From NCBI GenBank assembly GCA_965197525.1, contig OZ240211.1, positions 192,001 to 256,000 on the forward strand: a DNA stretch of 64,000 bases, read 5' to 3'. Made by a program: the position numbers and the translations under genes. The notes beneath the pieces are model-generated. The model ran no database searches. It was not told the origin of the DNA and worked only from the letters and a program-made list of their open reading frames with translations. This stretch comes from Nitrosopumilus sp. (GTDB taxonomy: Archaea; Thermoproteota; Nitrososphaeria; Nitrososphaerales; Nitrosopumilaceae). This document shows positions 14,118-63,539 of this stretch, piece after piece (the first letter of the stretch is position 1; each line of letters starts with the position of its first letter).

Positions 14118-14181
14118 TTACATAACTCACAACAGTTATCATTCAGATTGCCAAATTCTTCTAGCTACTACTGACTATGCT

Positions 14182-14898
14182 CAGTAGTCGGAAATTTGCC
14201 CCTTAGGCAGGTTCCACGACATCATACGGTTGACCTACAATCATACATGATTCCAATGCAGTCATTGCCGTAGCATATGCGACAAGTGCCAGAGTCACCC
14301 GATCATAACTCGAATCTGCACGGTACTGCTCCCTGCCCATGTGTTGTACATGAGCAGCGAGGTGTAAAACATATTGCCATAAACGATGCATTGCGGCTTG
14401 CTGTCCTCAGACGCACCTGCTCGACCTGCTTGTATCCTGTCTCTATCCTCAACCCCTGTACCGGCATGTATTCTTGGCAAGCCTTGCGGTACGTGTGAGC
14501 ATGTCCATACAGAGTTTGTCTGCATCGTCTGATTCCAGCGAGTTTATCATGTTACGAAACCACTTGGGCGACGGCATCTTCTTTTCGGCGTGCTTGAGTA
14601 GCCGGATTGCCTCCTCGGAGGATGTTGGATTCAGACATCTTCATCAGTATGGCTGCAAACTCGCTCACTCCATATTGGGCATTCTTCCTCGTAGAGAATC
14701 CCATAGATACGGATTCTAGTATTCCTGACAGGTATCAAGTATCCTTTCTCCGATCTTATTACGGTGTACCTGCCCACCTTTTTGCGTTAACACTAAGGTG
14801 GATAAGGGCATCGTGGATAATAGATTCGTATGTTCAAAAATGTTAACATAATTGAGAACGTCTGTTGGCTAGCTTAGGGGGTACATTTCCGACTACTG
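14182..14898 (-). mobile_element. Internally deleted ISH3-family IS remnant (717 bp)
   Basis: 21-bp TIRs cagtagtcggaaatttgcccc / ggggtacatttccgactactg, resembling the TIR of the intact ISH3 at 41289. Minus-strand fragments STRKNAQYGVSEF, MPSPKWFRNMINSLESDDADKLC, RIETGYKQVEQVRLRTASRN and FYTSLLMYNTW align by eye to the intact transposase. Confidence 0.85.
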
Positions 14899-15568
14899 AA
14901 AACTAACAAACTGTTATCTATCAAAGAGAACACAATACATGCAAAAGCTGGTTTTCACAGAAATGACCGTAGAAAAAAAGGTCAATTCTGGAAGGTAAAA
15001 CAGCAAAGAATGGCCAATAGAACAAAACAATACATACACAAAATATCAAAAGATATTGTGGATAATGCCGTTAGTAAAAAGGCTGTAATTGTGTTAGAAA
15101 ACTTGAAAGGAATAAGAAAATTGTACAAGAAAGGAAATGGTCAAGGCAACAAATACAGACGTAGATTGAATGGCTGGCAATTCTACGAGTTACAACGCCA
15201 AATAGAATACAAAGCCCAATGGGCCGGGCTCCCACCAGTAAGATATGTAGACCCAAAAAACACGAGCACGCAATGTCCAAGATGCGGAAAGGGACTCCAA
15301 GAGGACATGCAACACAGACGTAAAATGTCGTGTAATAATTGTGGATTATACATGGATAGAGACATTGTAGCTTCCATGAATATATCTCGCAAACTGTCCC
15401 CTAGGTTTAGGGATAGTAGAGTTGGCATAAGTGAAGCGCAGTCTGACGTTTTTGAGTCAGCGATGATGGAACCCTGTATACCGGTAATCCAGATAGTCGA
15501 TATGTCAAAGTCCAGTGTTCTGAGTGATTGTTATTGTTAATAATACCACTCGTGAATGCAACAGAACC
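14899..15568 (+). mobile_element. tnpB: 5'-truncated TIR-bounded tnpB element (copy 1)
   Basis: tnpB sequence (KTNKLLSIKENTIH...) starts immediately after the ISH3 TIR and the reading frame runs to 15540. Right end is tgcaacagaacc (reverse complement GGTTCTGTTGCA). Left end is missing. Confidence 0.85.
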
Positions 15569-15612
15569 GCCTAATCCAAGAGCTTAAATATATTCAGAGA
15601 ATGTTGTTTTTT

Positions 15613-18678: not shown

Positions 18679-18770
18679 GATGATGAATGCTAATTATTAT
18701 GTTATTTTCTTGTTTTTATATAAATTTGATTTGACGTCAATACATCATATGATGGTATCTTGATGTGGAA

Positions 18771-20102
18771 GGTTCTGTTGGGCTAACGGGTGTTGACTGC
18801 TGAGGATCATGTCAGATTCCACAACCATCAACAACACATTGACTACTCGACTTTGACATATCGACTATTCGGATTACCGGTCTGCAGGGTTCCGCCATCG
18901 CCGGTTCAAAAACACCGGACTGCGCTTCATGTATGCCATCTCTACTATCTCTAAACCTAGGAGACAGTTTGCGTGATATGTTCATGGCAGCGATGATATC
19001 CCTGTCCATAAACAAACCGCAATTATTACACGATGATTTACGATGTTGTTGCATGTCCTCTTGGAGTCTCTTTCCGCATTGCGGACACTGCGTGCTCGTG
19101 TTTTTTGGGTCTACTGTTTTTACAGGTAGCCCGACCCATTGGGCTTTGTATTCTATTTGTCTTTGTAGTTCAAAGAATTGCCATCCGTTCAATCTACGTC
19201 TGTATTTGTCGCCTTGACCGTTTCCTTTTCCGTACAGTTTTCTAATTCCCTTTAGATTTTCTAGAACAATGACAGCCTTTTTCTTGACTGCATTGTCTAC
19301 TATGTTTTTTGAGATTCTGTGTATGTACTGTTTTGTTCTGTTTGACATTCTTCTCTGTTTTTCTTTGTAGAATTGACCTTTCTTTCTTTTGTCGTTTCTA
19401 CGGAAACTGGATCTGGCATGTATTGTGTTCTCTTTGATTGAGAGTAACTTGTTGGTTTTGTAGAATGTTACCTCTTCTTCATTTCCGCATGTGACGTTTC
19501 TAAGGTTTCTGTCTACTCCTACTGTCTTGGCGCACTCTATCTCCTGTACTTTTTTTGAAATACAAAGACTGATGTTGAGAGCAGTCAATGAAAACGAGCG
19601 CACTGCCAAGGCGGGATCCGACAGTATTTTTTGAGTATGTTCGTTGAGTAGGATGTTAATTGGATTTCTTGGCTTGTATGGAATTGTGAGTAAGGCGCCG
19701 TTGTGTTTTATACGGTAACAATTAGTGATAAACGGATTTTTGATAATTGGATCTTTTACTTTGAGGCCACGTTTGACTGACTGATCTCTGTTTGCCAGGA
19801 TGCCAGCAGCTCGTGATATTGCATTGAGTTTGTATGAAGATAGGATGTCGTAGTGACGTAATTCGTGATAGCATAACATAGACAACCGTTTCATGTTGTG
19901 GGTATCTTCCTTTAGCCCTATCTTGATACAACGGTTAACCATGTCTGTGAACGTGATCATCATGTCCATTAGGTCAGAGTTTGGTGTATGTTTTTGTGCT
20001 ATTGACTTTATTGCTCTCAACAAGTATTATACGGTTTAAGGCTATCTATATTTAGTGTTATGAGTATAATTTCTGATCAACACCCGTTAACCCAACAGAA
20101 CC
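18771..20102 (-). mobile_element. TIR-bounded tnpB-only element (copy 2, 1332 bp)
   Basis: 26-bp TIRs ggttctgttgggctaacgggtgttga / tcaacacccgttaacccaacagaacc (1 mismatch). 8-bp TSD atgtggaa / atatggaa (1 mismatch). Confidence 0.92.
18812..20023 (-). CDS. tnpB: TnpB-like RNA-guided RuvC nuclease
   Basis: RuvC-I GVDRN, RuvC-II VLENL, Zn finger CPQCG...CNNCG, RuvC-III DRDIIAAMNI. Confidence 0.92.
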   Translation of the reverse strand: MLRAIKSIAQKHTPNSDLMDMMITFTDMVNRCIKIGLKEDTHNMKRLSMLCYHELRHYDILSSYKLNAISRAAGILANRDQSVKRGLKVKDPIIKNPFITNCYRIKHNGALLTIPYKPRNPINILLNEHTQKILSDPALAVRSFSLTALNISLCISKKVQEIECAKTVGVDRNLRNVTCGNEEEVTFYKTNKLLSIKENTIHARSSFRRNDKRKKGQFYKEKQRRMSNRTKQYIHRISKNIVDNAVKKKAVIVLENLKGIRKLYGKGNGQGDKYRRRLNGWQFFELQRQIEYKAQWVGLPVKTVDPKNTSTQCPQCGKRLQEDMQQHRKSSCNNCGLFMDRDIIAAMNISRKLSPRFRDSRDGIHEAQSGVFEPAMAEPCRPVIRIVDMSKSSSQCVVDGCGI

Positions 20103-20276
20103 ATATGGAATATACATTAAATATGCATCATTGCTCAATGTCTCTAACTCTATGATCGTCGATGAGTGTCCCTTTATTTCGTCTGTCTCTTGTGATTGTT
20201 CCAGTGATACATGGTATCCAACATATGCACCGGTGATGATAAACGTCGTAATCACAAGACCAATTAACAGATTCAT
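20058..20276 (-). CDS. Small membrane protein whose C-terminus is replaced by the tnpB element end
   Basis: N-terminal TM helix; codons after YIPY come from the TIR. Empty-site reconstruction ends ...YIP(Y/H)QDTII* at 18744. Confidence 0.55.
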   Translation of the reverse strand: MNLLIGLVITTFIITGAYVGYHVSLEQSQETDEIKGHSSTIIELETLSNDAYLMYIPYGSVGLTGVDQKLYS

Positions 20277-34172: not shown

Positions 34173-34215
34173 AATACTTGGATTATATCACGATAACTAA
34201 AGCTTTACGTTGCTA

Positions 34216-35521
34216 GGTTCTGTGAAATTATAGAGACCTTACTTATGAGGATAGGCGTACATAAATGCCCCAAAATCATAGAATATTTGTTGAAGGCAAT
34301 AAAGTCAATAGCACAAAAATATACGCCAAACTCTGACCTAATGGATATGATGGCCACATTCACGGACATGGTTAACCGTTGCATCAAGATAGGGTTAAAA
34401 GAAGACACACACAATATGAAAAGGCTATCATGTCTATGCTATCAGGAATTGAGAGACTATGACATTTTGTCGTCATACAAACTAAATGCAATATCAAGAG
34501 CTGCTGGCATATTGGCAAACAGAAGACAGTCAATAAAACGTGGTGTCAAGGTTAGATACCCAAAGGTAACAAAGCCGTTTATCACTAATTGTTACGGTAT
34601 AAAACACAATGGTGCACTACTTACAATCCCATACAAGAGTAGAAATCCAATCAACATCTTGTTAAACCCGCATACCCAAAAAATCCTGTCAAATCCTGCC
34701 TTGACAGTACGCTCGTTTTCATTGACTGCCTTTAACATCAGTCTTTGTGTTTCCAAGGAGACTGAACAGATAGAATGTACCAAGGCAGTAGGAATCGATA
34801 GAAATTTGAGGAATGTTACATGTGGCAATGAGGAGCAAGTAACATTTTACAAGACAAACAAAATACTATCCATAAAAGAGAACACCATGCACGCCAGAGC
34901 CGGATTCCACAGAAATGATCGCAGAAAGAAAGGTCAATTCTGGAAGGTAAGACAGCAAAGAATGACCAATAGAACAAAACAATACATACACAGAATATCA
35001 AAAGATATTGTGGATAATGCAGTCAAAGAAAAGGCTGTAATCGTTCTAGAAAACCTAAAAGGAATTAGAAAACTCTACAAAAAAGGAAATGGTCAAGGCA
35101 ACAAATACAGGCGCAGATTAAACGGATGGCAATTCTACGAGTTGCAACGCCAAATAGAATACAAAGCCCAATGGGTAGGACTCCCACCAGTCGAATATGT
35201 AGACCCAAAAAACACGAGCACGCAGTGTCCAAGATGCGGAAAGAAACTCCAAGAGGACATGCAACACAGTCGTAAAATGTCGTGTAATAATTGCGGATTG
35301 TACATGGACAGAGACATTGTAGCTGCCATGAACATATCACGCAAACTGTCCCCTAGGTTTAGGGATAGTGGAGATAACATAGGTGAAGCGCAGTCCGGTG
35401 TTTTTGAACCGGCGATGATGGAACCCTGCATACCGGTAATCCAGATAGTCGATATGTCAAAGTCGAGTGATAGGAGGATATGACTTGTTAAATCAACAGG
35501 TACCTATAACTTCACAGAACC
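34216..35521 (+). mobile_element. TIR-bounded tnpB-only element (copy 3, 1306 bp)
   Basis: 24-bp TIRs ggttctgtgaaattatagagacct / aggtacctataacttcacagaacc (3 mismatches). Perfect 8-bp TSD cgttgcta (34208-34215 / 35522-35529). Confidence 0.94.
34287..35483 (+). CDS. tnpB: TnpB-like RNA-guided RuvC nuclease
   Basis: GIDRN, VLENL, CPRCG/CNNCG, DRDIVAAMNI. TTG start at 34287/34290 inferred from alignment with the other copies. Confidence 0.92.
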   Translation: MLKAIKSIAQKYTPNSDLMDMMATFTDMVNRCIKIGLKEDTHNMKRLSCLCYQELRDYDILSSYKLNAISRAAGILANRRQSIKRGVKVRYPKVTKPFITNCYGIKHNGALLTIPYKSRNPINILLNPHTQKILSNPALTVRSFSLTAFNISLCVSKETEQIECTKAVGIDRNLRNVTCGNEEQVTFYKTNKILSIKENTMHARAGFHRNDRRKKGQFWKVRQQRMTNRTKQYIHRISKDIVDNAVKEKAVIVLENLKGIRKLYKKGNGQGNKYRRRLNGWQFYELQRQIEYKAQWVGLPPVEYVDPKNTSTQCPRCGKKLQEDMQHSRKMSCNNCGLYMDRDIVAAMNISRKLSPRFRDSGDNIGEAQSGVFEPAMMEPCIPVIQIVDMSKSSDRRI

Positions 35522-35526
35522 CGTTG

Positions 35527-35883
35527 CTATACAGGTAAGATTACCTTACCCTCGAATTTTGGGATATTGTCATCTTGAAGTGCTTTTTCTATGACTTGTT
35601 TTTGTTGGACTGTGACTCCTTGGACTATGGTTTTAGATGATCCAGTCTTGTCAACTAGCGCAAGAATGTATCCGCTGCTGTCAGTTAGTACAAATCCAGA
35701 TGATTCATCAACAAATGCGTATAGATTCTCCTCGCCTACAGGGTTCCAGACCTTTGTAGTACTGTTATTGTTTGCCACTAGTGCTAGTGCAGGCATGGCT
35801 TTACCATCAGTCAGTGAATTAAGATATTCTCTTGCTGCGGCAACTCTTTTTTGGCCCAACTTTAATGCTTGAAAGTATTGCAT
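35527..35883 (-). CDS. Conserved hypothetical protein
   Basis: 118-aa ORF; its TAG stop lies inside the TSD. Confidence 0.7.
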   Translation of the reverse strand: MQYFQALKLGQKRVAAAREYLNSLTDGKAMPALALVANNNSTTKVWNPVGEENLYAFVDESSGFVLTDSSGYILALVDKTGSSKTIVQGVTVQQKQVIEKALQDDNIPKFEGKVILPV

Positions 35884-56638: not shown

Positions 56639-58010
56639 GGTTCTGTCGAGTTAACGGGTGTTGACTGATGAGGATTCTATCAGCATCAAAACTCATATAC
56701 CTATTTCAACAGTGTTCATTAGGTAACACATTAACTACTTGACTTTGACATATCGACTATCTGGATTACCGGTCTGCAGGGTTCCATCATCGCTGACTCA
56801 AAAACGTTAGACTGCGCTTCACTTATGCCAACTCTACTATCCCTAAACCTAGGGGACAGTTTGCGTGATATGTTCATGGCAGCTATAATGTCTCTGTCCA
56901 TGAATAATCCGCAATTATTACACGACATTTTACGACTGTGTTGCATGTCCTCTTGGAGTTTCTTTCCGCATTTTGGACATTGTGTGCTCGTGCGTTTTGG
57001 ATCTACAAATTCGACGGGTAGCCCGACCCATTGGGCTTTGTATTCTATTTGGCGTTGTAGCTCGTAGAATTGCCAGCCGTTCAATCTGCGTCTGTACTTG
57101 TTGCCTTGACCATTTCCCTTTTGGTATAATTTTCTTATTCCTTTCAGGTTCTCCAAAACAATTATGGCTTTTTCCTTGACGGCATTATCTACTATGTTTT
57201 TTGAGATTTTGTGTATGTATTGTTTTGTTCTGTCAGTCATTCTTCTTTGTCTTTGCTTCCAAAATTGACCTTTCTTTCTACGATCATTTCTATGGAATCC
57301 GGCTCTAGTATGTATTGTGTTCTCTTTGATTGATAACAACTTGTTTGTTTTGTAGAATGTTATCTTTTCTTCATTTCCGCATGTGACGTTACGTAGATTT
57401 CTATCGATTCCCACTGTCTTGGTACACTCTATCTCTTCTGTTTCTTTCGAAACACAAAGACTGATGTTGAGAGCAGTCAATGAAAACGAGCGTACTGTCA
57501 AGGCGGAGTTTGACAGGATTTTTTGAGTGTGTTGGTTCAACAAGATGTTGATAGGATTTCCACGTTTGTATGGTATTGTGAGTAGTGCACCATTGTGTTT
57601 TATGCCGTAGCAGTTTGTAATGAATGGATTTTTGATAATTGGGTCTTTTACTTTGACACCACGTTTGACTGACTGCTTTCTATTTGATAATACTCCGGCA
57701 GCTCTTGATATTGCATTGAGTTTGTATGAAGATAAAATATCATAGTCTCTCAATTCGTGATAGCATAGCATGGATAACCGCTTCATGTTGTGGGTATCTT
57801 CCTTTAGTCCTATTCTAATGCAATGGTTAACCATCTTTGTGAATGTAACCATCATATCCATTAGGTCGGAATTTGGTGTATGTTTTTGTGCTATTGACTT
57901 TATTGCTCTCAACGAATATCTTCGGTTTAAAGTTATTTATATCTTGTTCAGAGGGATCTTTCTACCATGGAATCAAAATTTATTTCAACACCCGTTAACT
58001 TGACAGAACC
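56639..58010 (-). mobile_element. TIR-bounded tnpB-only element (copy 4, 1372 bp)
   Basis: 26-bp TIRs ggttctgtcgagttaacgggtgttga / tcaacacccgttaacttgacagaacc (1 mismatch). Perfect TSD gataaact (56631-38 / 58011-18). Confidence 0.95.
56731..57912 (-). CDS. tnpB: TnpB-like RNA-guided RuvC nuclease
   Basis: GIDRN, VLENL, CPKCG/CNNCG, DRDIIAAMNI. Confidence 0.92.
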   Translation of the reverse strand: MRAIKSIAQKHTPNSDLMDMMVTFTKMVNHCIRIGLKEDTHNMKRLSMLCYHELRDYDILSSYKLNAISRAAGVLSNRKQSVKRGVKVKDPIIKNPFITNCYGIKHNGALLTIPYKRGNPINILLNQHTQKILSNSALTVRSFSLTALNISLCVSKETEEIECTKTVGIDRNLRNVTCGNEEKITFYKTNKLLSIKENTIHTRAGFHRNDRRKKGQFWKQRQRRMTDRTKQYIHKISKNIVDNAVKEKAIIVLENLKGIRKLYQKGNGQGNKYRRRLNGWQFYELQRQIEYKAQWVGLPVEFVDPKRTSTQCPKCGKKLQEDMQHSRKMSCNNCGLFMDRDIIAAMNISRKLSPRFRDSRVGISEAQSNVFESAMMEPCRPVIQIVDMSKSSS

Positions 58011-58249
58011 GATAAACTCATTGTAATATTCTCACATGTTTTTGTCTACACGTCGCTCTTTTTCCTGCACTTCATAAAATGATCTGTTTCTGAGACGAGT
58101 CTTTGTACTTGATGGAATCTTCTATAATCAATTAACACCTAATCTTATGGATTTTGGGAATTCATCTTTGAATTATACAAAATAATCTTGTAAATTAGTG
58201 TACTATTTTATAATGATTATATAATTACCTTGATCTTTTATGTGACTGC

Positions 58250-62175: not shown

Positions 62176-62251
62176 ATATGGAGATTATGTCAGTAACTGT
62201 GCCAACGCAGTCATGATCTGATTAACAATTCGTACTAGTATTAGGATTTAG

Positions 62252-63539
62252 GGTTCTGTGAAGTTATCGGGGGTTATCTGTTAATCCCTAAATTGTATAA
62301 ACCTCTAAACCGTAAGATATTCGTTGAAAGCGATAAAGTCAATATCACAGAAATATACGCCAAACTCTGATCTAATGGATATGATGGCCATATTCACAAA
62401 GATGGTCAATCATTGCATCAAGACAGGATTGAAAGAAGACACTCACAATATGAAGAGGTTGTCCATATTATGTTATCATGAATTACGTAATTATAACATC
62501 CTGTCTTCATACAAACTAAATGCAATATCACGAGCTGCAGGCATGTTATCAAACAGAAAACAATCAATCAAACGAGGTGTCAGAATAAGAGACCCAATAG
62601 TCAAAAATCCCTTTATGACAAACTGTTACGGCATAAAACACAACGGTGCACTATTAACAATCCCATACAAGAAACATAACCCAATCAACATTTTACTCAA
62701 CGTTCACACCCAAAAAATCCTATCTGATCCCGCCTTGACGGTGCGCTCGTTTTCATTGACTGCCCTCAACATCAGTCTTTGTGTTTCAAAAACAGTACAA
62801 GAGATAGAGTGCACCAAGAAAGTGGGAATAGACAGAAACCTAAGAAATGTGACGTGTGGGAACAAGCAAGAGGTGACAGTCTACAAGACAAACAAACTGT
62901 TATCCATAAAGGAGAACACAATACACGCTAGGGCAGGATTCCACAGAAATGATCGCAGAAAGAAAGGTCAATTCTGGAAACAAAGACAGAGACGAATGAG
63001 CAATAGAACAAAGCAGTACATCCACAGAATCTCAAAGGATATAGTAGACAACGCAGTCAAAAACAAGACTGCAATCGTCATGGAAAACCTGAAAGGAATA
63101 AGAAAATTGTACCGAAAAGGAAACAGTCAAGGTAACAAGTACAGGCGTAGATTGAACGGGTGGCAATTCTACGAGTTACAACGCCAAATAGAATACAAAG
63201 CCCAATGGGTCGGGTTGCCTCCAGTCGAGACAGTAGACCCAAGAAACACGAGCACGCAGTGTCCGAAATGCGGAAAGAGACTCCAAGAGGACATGCAACA
63301 ACATCGTAAAATGTCGTGTAATAATTGCGGTTTGTTTATGGACAGGGACATCATCGCTGCCATGAACATATCACGCAAGCTGCCCCCTAGGTTTAGGGGT
63401 AGTAGAGATGACATAGATGAAGCGCAGTCCGGCACTTTTGAGCAGGCGATGACGGAACCCAGCACATCATTGGTAATCCGAATAGTCGATATGTCAAAGT
63501 CAAGTTATAGGGGTTAACCCTCGATAACTTCACAGAACC
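62252..63539 (+). mobile_element. TIR-bounded tnpB-only element (copy 5, 1288 bp)
   Basis: 25-bp TIRs ggttctgtgaagttatcgggggtta / taaccctcgataacttcacagaacc (1 mismatch). Perfect TSD ggatttag (62244-51 / 63540-47). Confidence 0.95.
62324..63517 (+). CDS. tnpB: TnpB-like RNA-guided RuvC nuclease
   Basis: GIDRN, VMENL, CPKCG/CNNCG, DRDIIAAMNI. Confidence 0.92.
   Translation: MKAIKSISQKYTPNSDLMDMMAIFTKMVNHCIKTGLKEDTHNMKRLSILCYHELRNYNILSSYKLNAISRAAGMLSNRKQSIKRGVRIRDPIVKNPFMTNCYGIKHNGALLTIPYKKHNPINILLNVHTQKILSDPALTVRSFSLTALNISLCVSKTVQEIECTKKVGIDRNLRNVTCGNKQEVTVYKTNKLLSIKENTIHARAGFHRNDRRKKGQFWKQRQRRMSNRTKQYIHRISKDIVDNAVKNKTAIVMENLKGIRKLYRKGNSQGNKYRRRLNGWQFYELQRQIEYKAQWVGLPPVETVDPRNTSTQCPKCGKRLQEDMQQHRKMSCNNCGLFMDRDIIAAMNISRKLPPRFRGSRDDIDEAQSGTFEQAMTEPSTSLVIRIVDMSKSSYRG

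Follow-up and report, generated by a model that had tools for sequence, protein, structure and literature searches.

Where does the guide of a TnpB nuclease lie when its gene travels between the inverted repeats of a DDE-type transposon? The question is raised by a 64,000-nucleotide stretch of DNA from Nitrosopumilus sp. (contig OZ240211.1, positions 192,001 to 256,000; hereafter the window), which lies in a host genome of one 2.21-Mb contig, 39.6% G+C and 99% complete, and which carries five copies of a tnpB element. An earlier note, made from the letters of the window, had pointed out that between the RNA scaffold and the right terminal inverted repeat (TIR) of each copy there is a linker of differing sequence, and had offered two models: in model (a) the guide is the linker itself, internal and fixed in each subfamily, while in model (b) the RNA reads through the TIR and the guide consists of the target-site duplication (TSD) plus the flanking DNA. 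Its starting point, that the guide of IS200/IS605 elements is the DNA following the element end, is right, though the present element lies outside IS200/IS605.

Comparative sequence evidence, namely a hairpin that takes in TIR positions -7 to -13 and a one-sided (W)TR motif next to the insertions, supports model (b). We consider it likely that the omegaRNA of these elements has a 3' end with a TIR-embedded hairpin and a pseudoknot, and that its guide is the TSD plus flank, outside the element. Prokaryotic TnpBs in TIR-bounded transposons of the DDE type are known from surveys only, and the way in which their guide RNA accommodates an inverted repeat plus a target duplication had not been worked out.

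Conservation stops where the core scaffold closes

The window has five occurrences of GATATGTCAAAGTCNAGT (15499+, 18845-, 35451+, 56737- and 63488+; 0.37 expected by chance), and in all five copies conservation ends at GATATGTCAAAGTCnAGT, after which differing sequence leads to the right TIR. Aligned to each other, the five 3' regions are near-invariant up to GATATGTCAAAGTCNAGT and unalignable from there until ACAGAACC, which bears out the sharp stop that the earlier note had described; the linkers it quoted for the copies were also correct. The stop coincides with the 3' strand of the stem by which the core scaffold is closed, a long-range helix supported by covariation, and it is also the end of the conserved TnpB C-terminus (...DMSKSS), the variable letter n of the motif being the synonymous third position of a serine codon. 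The tnpB stop codons fall at differing places within the linker.

What did not hold is the description of the linkers as copy-specific. The segments that follow the motif at 47 right ends of the genome fall into about ten types, and since one and the same linker can be found at up to six loci whose flanks are unrelated, they are specific to subfamilies, the five window copies representing five of these. Linkers in this genome measure between 9 and about 80 nt, and relatives from another genome (G021) lack one altogether, their 24-nt TIR abutting ...GUCAAAGUCG. Searching the genome by blastn-short with the first 26 nt of every linker type returned no match of at least 16 nt outside the elements, the best ones being chance-level matches of 14-16 nt with one mismatch (E of at least 1.5). 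An exact scan of viral contigs, made with the copy-3 linker alone, gave 0 matches.

A covarying scaffold and a hairpin shared by linker and inverted repeat

An RNAalifold analysis of 20 core scaffolds from four or more genera gave two helices, in which 12 of the 15 pairs show compensatory changes on both sides. Stem 1 has five to nine such changes per pair and a conserved loop of the type YUAGGUUUW; the closing stem is a 7-bp long-range helix whose 3' strand lies within GAUAUGUC / GAUAUGUCAAAGUC, which closes a core scaffold of about 123 nt and which covaries between this genome (GACAUA:UAUGUC) and G021 (GAUACA:UGUAUC). The compensatory changes of stem 1 seen among the window copies are partly synonymous codon changes and were set aside, real covariation appearing only with the other genera added. 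The structured scaffold overlaps the 3' end of tnpB, and miniature copies of the element, described below, keep the scaffold region. Hairpin 2 of the scaffold (35395-35418 and its equivalents) varies among the window copies by clean compensatory changes, CCGGU/ACCGG in some and CUGAC/GUCAG in others, and in distant genera it is replaced by another segment (GAAGGGGAAC...); only stem 1, the closing stem and a terminal hairpin are common to the whole family. Rfam returned no family for the scaffold RNA, its sole match in the window being a tRNA.

The terminal hairpin came from minimum free energy folds of about 34 distinct tails (linker plus TIR), which in nearly all subfamilies gave one hairpin that begins immediately after AAAGUC and extends to the mid-TIR, and which in this genome leave the last 8-11 nt, (N)ACAGAACC, unpaired. 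The 5' arm and its TIR partner differ together: AAGUUAU faces AUAACUU in subfamily A, GUAAUC faces GAUUAC in E, GUGUUC faces GAAUGC in D and GGUUAU faces AUAACC in F. Cognate pairs of arm and TIR are more complementary than non-cognate ones (permutation p = 0.0004), and in 25/34 tails the sense strand folds better than the antisense strand. The 26 tails of other genera repeat the arrangement, with the closing stem, the dinucleotide AA and then a hairpin with the TIR as its 3' arm, and 19 of them leave exactly AGAACC unpaired. In a fixed register, positions +3 to +9 of these relatives pair with TIR positions -13 to -7 in 151 of 175 cells (shuffled controls: mean 131, maximum 144, with 0/5000 reaching the observed value), there are three to five pair types per position, and G·U pairs outnumber A·C mismatches by 31 to 7. 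These compensatory and G·U changes point to a helix of the sense-strand RNA. Because a hairpin that contains the TIR covaries in other genera as well, the functional RNA would extend at least to TIR position -7. The linker itself, which is absent in relatives, varies from 9 to about 80 nt, finds no match in the genome and is base-paired with the TIR, is for these reasons read as the 5' arm and loop of a predicted RNA hairpin and not as the guide. Its copy-specific look would come from the 5' arm co-evolving with an inner TIR that differs between subfamilies.

Beyond the hairpin, the last bases of the element, (G)AACC, are complementary to GGUU(U) in the loop of stem 1, and the free (N)AGAACC tail probably pairs with this conserved loop as a pseudoknot. 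Two compensated variants fit such a pairing, one with the loop GGCU and the end AGCC (L080, its TIR pair verified) and one with the loop GAUU and the end AGUC (L063), and three elements carry an extended GGUUC:GAACC. Such variants would be rare because the TIR end is also constrained by the transposase. Mutual information between the outer TIR and the scaffold, computed within this genome, where it is confounded by descent, gave nothing convincing.

Clean insertions lie just 3' of a one-sided motif

If the guide starts after the right TIR, the target-adjacent motif (TAM) should stand at the left of the element, immediately outside the TSD. All 18 copies with a clean TSD have W at -11, T at -10 and R at -9 (p of about 1e-19, given a genome-wide WTR rate of 0.088 per site), the R being A in 9 copies and G in 9, and an A-rich pair lies 5-6 nt further upstream (-16/-15). 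The motif is one-sided: YA follows the right TSD in 4/18 copies, against about 2.7 expected from the genome, and a symmetric TR-N8-YA target was rejected on this count. The four miniature copies, reduced to the omegaRNA region, have TTA at the motif position and in element orientation, and the 14 clean, correctly oriented elements of other genera have TR in 14/14 and WTR in 12/14 cases, so that across genera TR immediately precedes the TSD in 32/32 clean insertions. By contrast, seven autonomous IS6-like elements without TnpB, taken from seven genomes as a control, show WTR at 1/14 flanks, no more than chance. Such a T-T-purine motif, one-sided, abutting the TSD and travelling with tnpB/omegaRNA, would be the TAM expected for a guide whose first base follows the right TIR.

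The predicted guide

Put together, these features suggest how the RNA may be built (Table 1). The core scaffold of about 123 nt would end with the long-range stem, the 3' strand of which lies in GAUAUGUCAAAGUC; the linker would then form the 5' arm and loop of a further hairpin, with the right TIR (about -7 to -13 and further in) as 3' arm, the inner TIR differing between subfamilies and the 5' arm having presumably co-evolved with it. The last 6-9 nt, (N)AGAACC, would stay single-stranded and probably pair with GGUU(U) in the loop of stem 1, giving the order hairpin, pseudoknot, guide. The RNA would thus read through the TIR, and the guide would be transcribed from the 8-bp TSD and then from unique flank. 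We infer that the matching target, which TnpB would cleave and into which the element would home, is the unoccupied allele, consisting of TTR, TSD and flank. Filled alleles would escape, their left junction offering the TAM with only 8 matching nt and their right junction having ACC in place of a TAM.

Table 1. Coordinates in the window of copy 3, of its observed and predicted parts, and of the other four copies
Feature	Position	Strand	Remarks
Copy 1, subfamily D	14900..15568	+	5'-truncated; predicted guide starts at 15569
Copy 2, subfamily B	18771..20102	-	candidate TAM ATA at 20111-20113 (minus); predicted guide from 18770 downward
TAM-like (W)TR motif TTA, copy 3	34205..34207	+	immediately upstream of the left TSD
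Left TSD of copy 3, CGTTGCTA	34208..34215	+	8 bp, identical to 35522-35529
Copy 3, subfamily C	34216..35521	+	1306 bp, tnpB-only, IS6-like ends; from TIR search and genome BLAST
Left TIR of copy 3, begins GGTTCTGTGAAATTATAG	34216..34239	+	21/24 positions match the reverse complement of 35498-35521
tnpB open reading frame, 412 aa	34245..35483	+	RuvC D/E/D motifs, zinc ribbon; Pfam match
omegaRNA stem 1, 8 bp	35345..35369	+	conserved 9-nt loop CUAGGUUUA (35353-35361); RNAalifold
Proposed pseudoknot, 5' strand GGUU	35356-35359	+	in the loop of stem 1
Closing stem, 5' strand	35375..35381	+	pairs with 35453-35459
Closing stem, 3' strand	35453..35459	+	inside the motif GATATGTCAAAGTC
Predicted terminal, guide-proximal hairpin	35465..35512	+	5' arm and loop = linker (35465-35497); 3' arm = inner and middle right TIR
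Right TIR of copy 3, AGGTACCTATAACTTCACAGAACC	35498..35521	+	also predicted 3' arm of the terminal hairpin plus single-stranded tail
Proposed pseudoknot, 3' strand AGAACC	35516..35521	+	unpaired last 6 nt; would pair with GGUU(U) of loop 1
Predicted guide template, copy 3	35522..35541 (end approximate)	+	right TSD (35522-35529) plus about 8-12 nt of flank; from TAM position, hairpin and pseudoknot geometry
Copy 4, B-like subfamily	56639..58010	-	102 nt from scaffold end to TIR end; candidate TAM ATG at 58019-58021 (minus)
Copy 5, subfamily A	62252..63539	+	linker of only 9 nt (UUAUAGGGG), pairs with inner TIR; candidate TAM TTA at 62241-62243

The element is a passenger of an IS6-like transposon

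The protein is a TnpB by several tests: the translation has an intact RuvC triad (GIDRN, LENL, DRD) and the two CxxC pairs of a zinc ribbon (CxxC..CxxC), copy 3 matches the Pfam domain Cas12f1-like_TNB with E = 2.6e-21, four copies match it at 76 bits, and the nuclease half matches solved TnpB and Cas12f chains (phmmer). Genome BLAST found about 40 full and 12 partial copies of the element, and a motif scan found 48 of its 3' ends, 47 of them with the terminal CAGAACC. Both TIRs are present in 26 copies, 18 of which have an 8-bp TSD with at most one mismatch; TIRs are 18-26 bp long across copies and the ends read GGTTCTG...CAGAACC, those of copy 3 beginning GGTTCTGTGAA in the TIR search.

Three further observations concern the make-up of individual copies. 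Four miniature copies of 208-497 bp (host-genome coordinates G000:143852-144348, 803351-803738, 870887-871264 and 1385894-1386101, outside the window) retain the omegaRNA region alone, with both TIRs and perfect 8-bp TSDs, and all lie 3' of TTA in element orientation. Copy 1 is abutted exactly (14899/14900) at the start of its homology by a different element of about 719 bp (14181-14899) with 28-nt inverted repeats, 86% complementary, that start TCAGTAGTCGGAAAT; the left half of copy 1 seems to have been lost to this element, by replacement or removal. In G021, the right TIR end of one element (L014) is followed 7 nt on by a second ACAGAACC (CAGAACC-TAAAACA-CAGAACC), which resembles what is left of the end of an adjacent or nested element.

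Membership in IS200/IS605 (the tnpB-only IS1341 group) was rejected: the elements have TIRs and 8-bp TSDs, and PF01797 (Y1 TnpA) finds no match in the single-contig genome, which is 99% complete. TIR starts of the type GGnnnTG and 8-bp TSDs are traits of the IS6/IS26-like elements (PMC6807381). The genome encodes DDE_Tnp_IS240 (PF13610) transposases, and one autonomous IS6-like element of 1970 bp (G000:746475-748444), with an 8-bp TSD, shares the first 18 bases of its TIR with TnpB subfamily E. Because of their GGTTCTG ends, their 8-bp TSDs, the missing Y1 TnpA and this shared TIR, the tnpB elements are non-autonomous passengers of an archaeal IS6-like transposon encoded elsewhere in the genome. 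Candidate mobilisers are rare, with the intact element just named and a composite one of 4.1 kb with a broken gene (G000:1956395-1960520), for about 45 tnpB passengers; the likely mobilising protein is a DDE_Tnp_IS240 transposase of 378 amino acids. A second full-length transposase gene, 89% identical, lies at about 2,002,343-2,003,476, with a single matching TIR located. The archaeal IS6 branch is only distantly related to IS26, perhaps outside the family proper, and copy-in (cointegrate) transposition is known for bacterial IS6/IS26 members only (PMC6807381).

A DNA search of 60 relatives found the element family in only 3 other genomes, and a protein search of 300 genomes of the host family found the TnpB in 43 genomes of 7 genera, the elements of other genera having 45-60% TnpB identity. 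A literature search for TnpB in Nitrosopumilus or in elements of the IS6-like kind returned no paper.

Expression contigs and an empty allele

The sole RNA run that contains part of the stretch, a sponge metatranscriptome available as contigs only, covers the 3' region of tnpB. One contig of this RNA library runs from the scaffold through the subfamily-D linker, 51 nt, and by the length of the linker reaches the TIR end. It is compatible with read-through and proves nothing on the RNA ends; contigs show neither 3' ends nor strand, nor whether they come from RNA or DNA. That word depth is high over the 3' region may be due simply to the roughly 45 copies.

An empty site was found for copy 2. 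A contig found in both X2 and X3, which are runs of the source organism, joins 18767 to 20109 with one base between them, so that the 8-bp duplication is single and the element missing, and in both runs it coexists with the filled allele at about one third to one half the depth of neighbouring single-copy sequence. It differs from the window (18763-20113) at about 1.6% of the flanking bases and so comes from another strain. In element orientation its TSD reads TTTCACAT, against TTCCACAT at the predicted guide start of copy 2, and with guide position 3 thus mismatched, this coexisting allele may serve poorly as a target.

Weighing the alternatives

Several points weigh against the reading proposed here. 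The pseudoknot rests on two compensated variants, one of which (L063) is a right end without a confirmed left TIR, and an intact element (L057) and two degenerate copies combine GAUU with AACC, an uncompensated A·C mismatch. The elements within the genome are related, and shuffle statistics overstate their independence; the complementarity of arm and TIR could be in part a nested inverted repeat at the DNA level; and the single-sequence fold of scaffold plus tail is unremarkable (z = -1.2). The RNA run may contain DNA, and its contig would stop at the TIR end anyway, since the repeat branches there. Finally, the reading does not by itself explain the presence of TTR beside every insertion.

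Several further points speak for an internal guide, located right after AAAGUC(NAGU), fixed in each subfamily and aimed at a host gene, a virus or another insertion sequence. At about 123 nt, the core scaffold by itself already equals the minimal scaffold of ISDra2 in length, and the loop of hairpin 2, UUUUGA, could form an alternative pseudoknot with UCAAAG just upstream, which would place the guide right after AAAGUC, where conservation does stop; subfamily A, moreover, has 16 nt between ...AGT and the outer 18-nt TIR. The UUUUGA/UCAAAG pairing was rejected, its complementarity being confined to the clade of this genome and missing in distant relatives. A guide of this kind would have a length of 0 (G021) to about 80 nt, would be base-paired with the TIR with covariation, and would have no match of at least 16 nt outside the elements in its own genome, nor, for the copy-3 linker, in the viral contigs, and it leaves the one-sided TTR motif unexplained; we regard it as very unlikely. 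Another possibility is that the guide is the TIR sequence or its mirror, with TnpB cutting the ends of its own or sister copies, for example to aid excision or to attack competitors. The TIR does follow the scaffold directly in G021, and the 5' arm in this genome resembles part of the left TIR. That resemblance breaks off in subfamily A at an indel after only about 7 nt, a guide of this sort would be disrupted by the 9-80 nt inserted between scaffold and TIR in this genome, the frequent G·U pairs indicate an RNA helix and not sequence identity, and a TTR motif outside the TSD is not predicted, all of which makes this possibility harder still to credit.

It is also conceivable, if improbable, that the hairpin acts at the level of DNA or transcription only, as a nested repeat bound by the transposase or as an RNA 3' end or terminator, and that TTR is a transposition preference or half of a promoter site. 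The 3' arm of the hairpin is at the same time a transposase-binding TIR, so that constraints are mixed; the biology of archaeal IS6-like elements is unstudied (PMC6807381); and the A-rich positions -16/-15 could resemble a transcription factor B recognition element. The autonomous IS6-like elements lack the motif (1/14 flanks), and G as the R in half of the sites is unlike a TATA box. The motif is moreover one-sided, oriented with tnpB and present at miniature copies that lack the tnpB 5' end, and the G·U excess and the sense-strand bias favour RNA. A guide of TSD plus flank, behind a TIR-embedded hairpin and pseudoknot, remains the reading that we prefer.

Discussion

The proposed RNA can be compared with several known systems. 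(i) The present system shares with ISDra2 TnpB, an IS200/IS605 member whose omegaRNA complex was resolved by cryo-EM (PMC10097598), a small RuvC/zinc-ribbon nuclease, an omegaRNA that overlaps the 3' end of tnpB and, by prediction, a TAM 5' of the target. In ISDra2, nt -6 to -2 form the pseudoknot with bases about 100 nt before them and stack on stem 1, and stem 4 comes immediately ahead of this strand (PMC10097598); the order that we propose, of guide-proximal stem, pseudoknot strand and flank-transcribed guide, is alike, except that here the TIR would supply the 3' arm of 'stem 4' and the pseudoknot strand. Unlike ISDra2, the present element has TIRs and a TSD in place of a Y1 TnpA and subterminal hairpin ends, the last 24 or so scaffold nt would be a DDE-type TIR, the first 8 target nt would be the TSD, and the predicted TAM, known here from sequence alone, is (W)TR instead of TTGAT. 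(ii) Fanzor loci place the TAM to the left of the inverted repeat and the guide to its right (PMC10432273). As in the Fanzor1 loci, such as SpuFz1, a TnpB-family nuclease is the sole gene between inverted repeats, with many copies and copies without the open reading frame, the candidate TAM is left of the left repeat, and the omegaRNA is at the right end, its predicted guide beyond the repeat. Fanzor1 proteins are eukaryotic or viral, larger, and carried by other transposon superfamilies, whereas the present TnpB has an ammonia-oxidising archaeon as host and an IS6-like carrier.

(iii) The survey of Altae-Tran et al. 2023 describes, in its main text, prokaryotic TnpB branches associated with DDE transposases (DDE-1 to DDE-6), along with solo TnpBs that have the same ends (PMC10691335). 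The likeness to the present element is one of architecture only: TnpB lies between inverted terminal repeats with the tnpB 3' end within 250 bp of the element end, and solo copies share their ends with a transposase element, which implies mobilisation in trans (PMC10691335). As carriers, the main text of the survey names IS630 (PMC10691335), and the text of a review ISL2, IS630 and IS1031 (PMC13565253), with IS6-like elements in neither; for the DDE branches, the survey text reports no omegaRNA structure, guide position or TAM (PMC10691335). (iv) The archaeal IS6/IS26-like insertion sequences (Harmer and Hall 2019, PMC6807381) share GGnnnTG-type TIR starts (here GGTTCTG) and 8-bp TSDs with the TnpB elements, which differ from them in carrying no transposase, the former having one of the DDE_Tnp_IS240 type. 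(v) Cas12f effectors are among the best matches to solved structures, over the RuvC/TNB part; the similarity is limited to the C-terminal nuclease half, with the domains that read the protospacer-adjacent motif (PAM) unaligned, and there is no CRISPR array here. The PAMs of Cas12f are 5' T-rich (TTTR or NTTR) and resemble the T-T-purine motif of the present elements.

The relation between motif and insertion deserves a separate comment. If IS6-like elements copy without excising, TnpB cannot repair the donor site, and the perfect adjacency to the TAM must then come about either through survival driven by homing or through insertion directed by the TAM. We prefer the former, in which only the TAM-adjacent insertions would home into empty alleles and so spread. 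In the latter, recognition of the TAM by TnpB-omegaRNA would help to choose the IS6-like insertion site, making insertion TAM-directed and oriented. We think this rather unlikely; it would explain the 32/32 TR adjacency in the face of no bias for the same type of transposase without TnpB. If true, each new copy would be born with a usable pair of TAM and guide, and the system would be a primitive, CRISPR-free counterpart of nuclease-assisted DDE transposition.

The new contribution of this analysis is the reading of the TIR as the place of a hairpin and a pseudoknot. It suggests that a transposase TIR has been built into a guide RNA, as the 3' arm of the guide-proximal stem and as the pseudoknot strand, and that the TSD serves as the first 8 nt of the target with the TAM (TTR) outside it, and it provides concrete, testable constructs for a compact archaeal nuclease.

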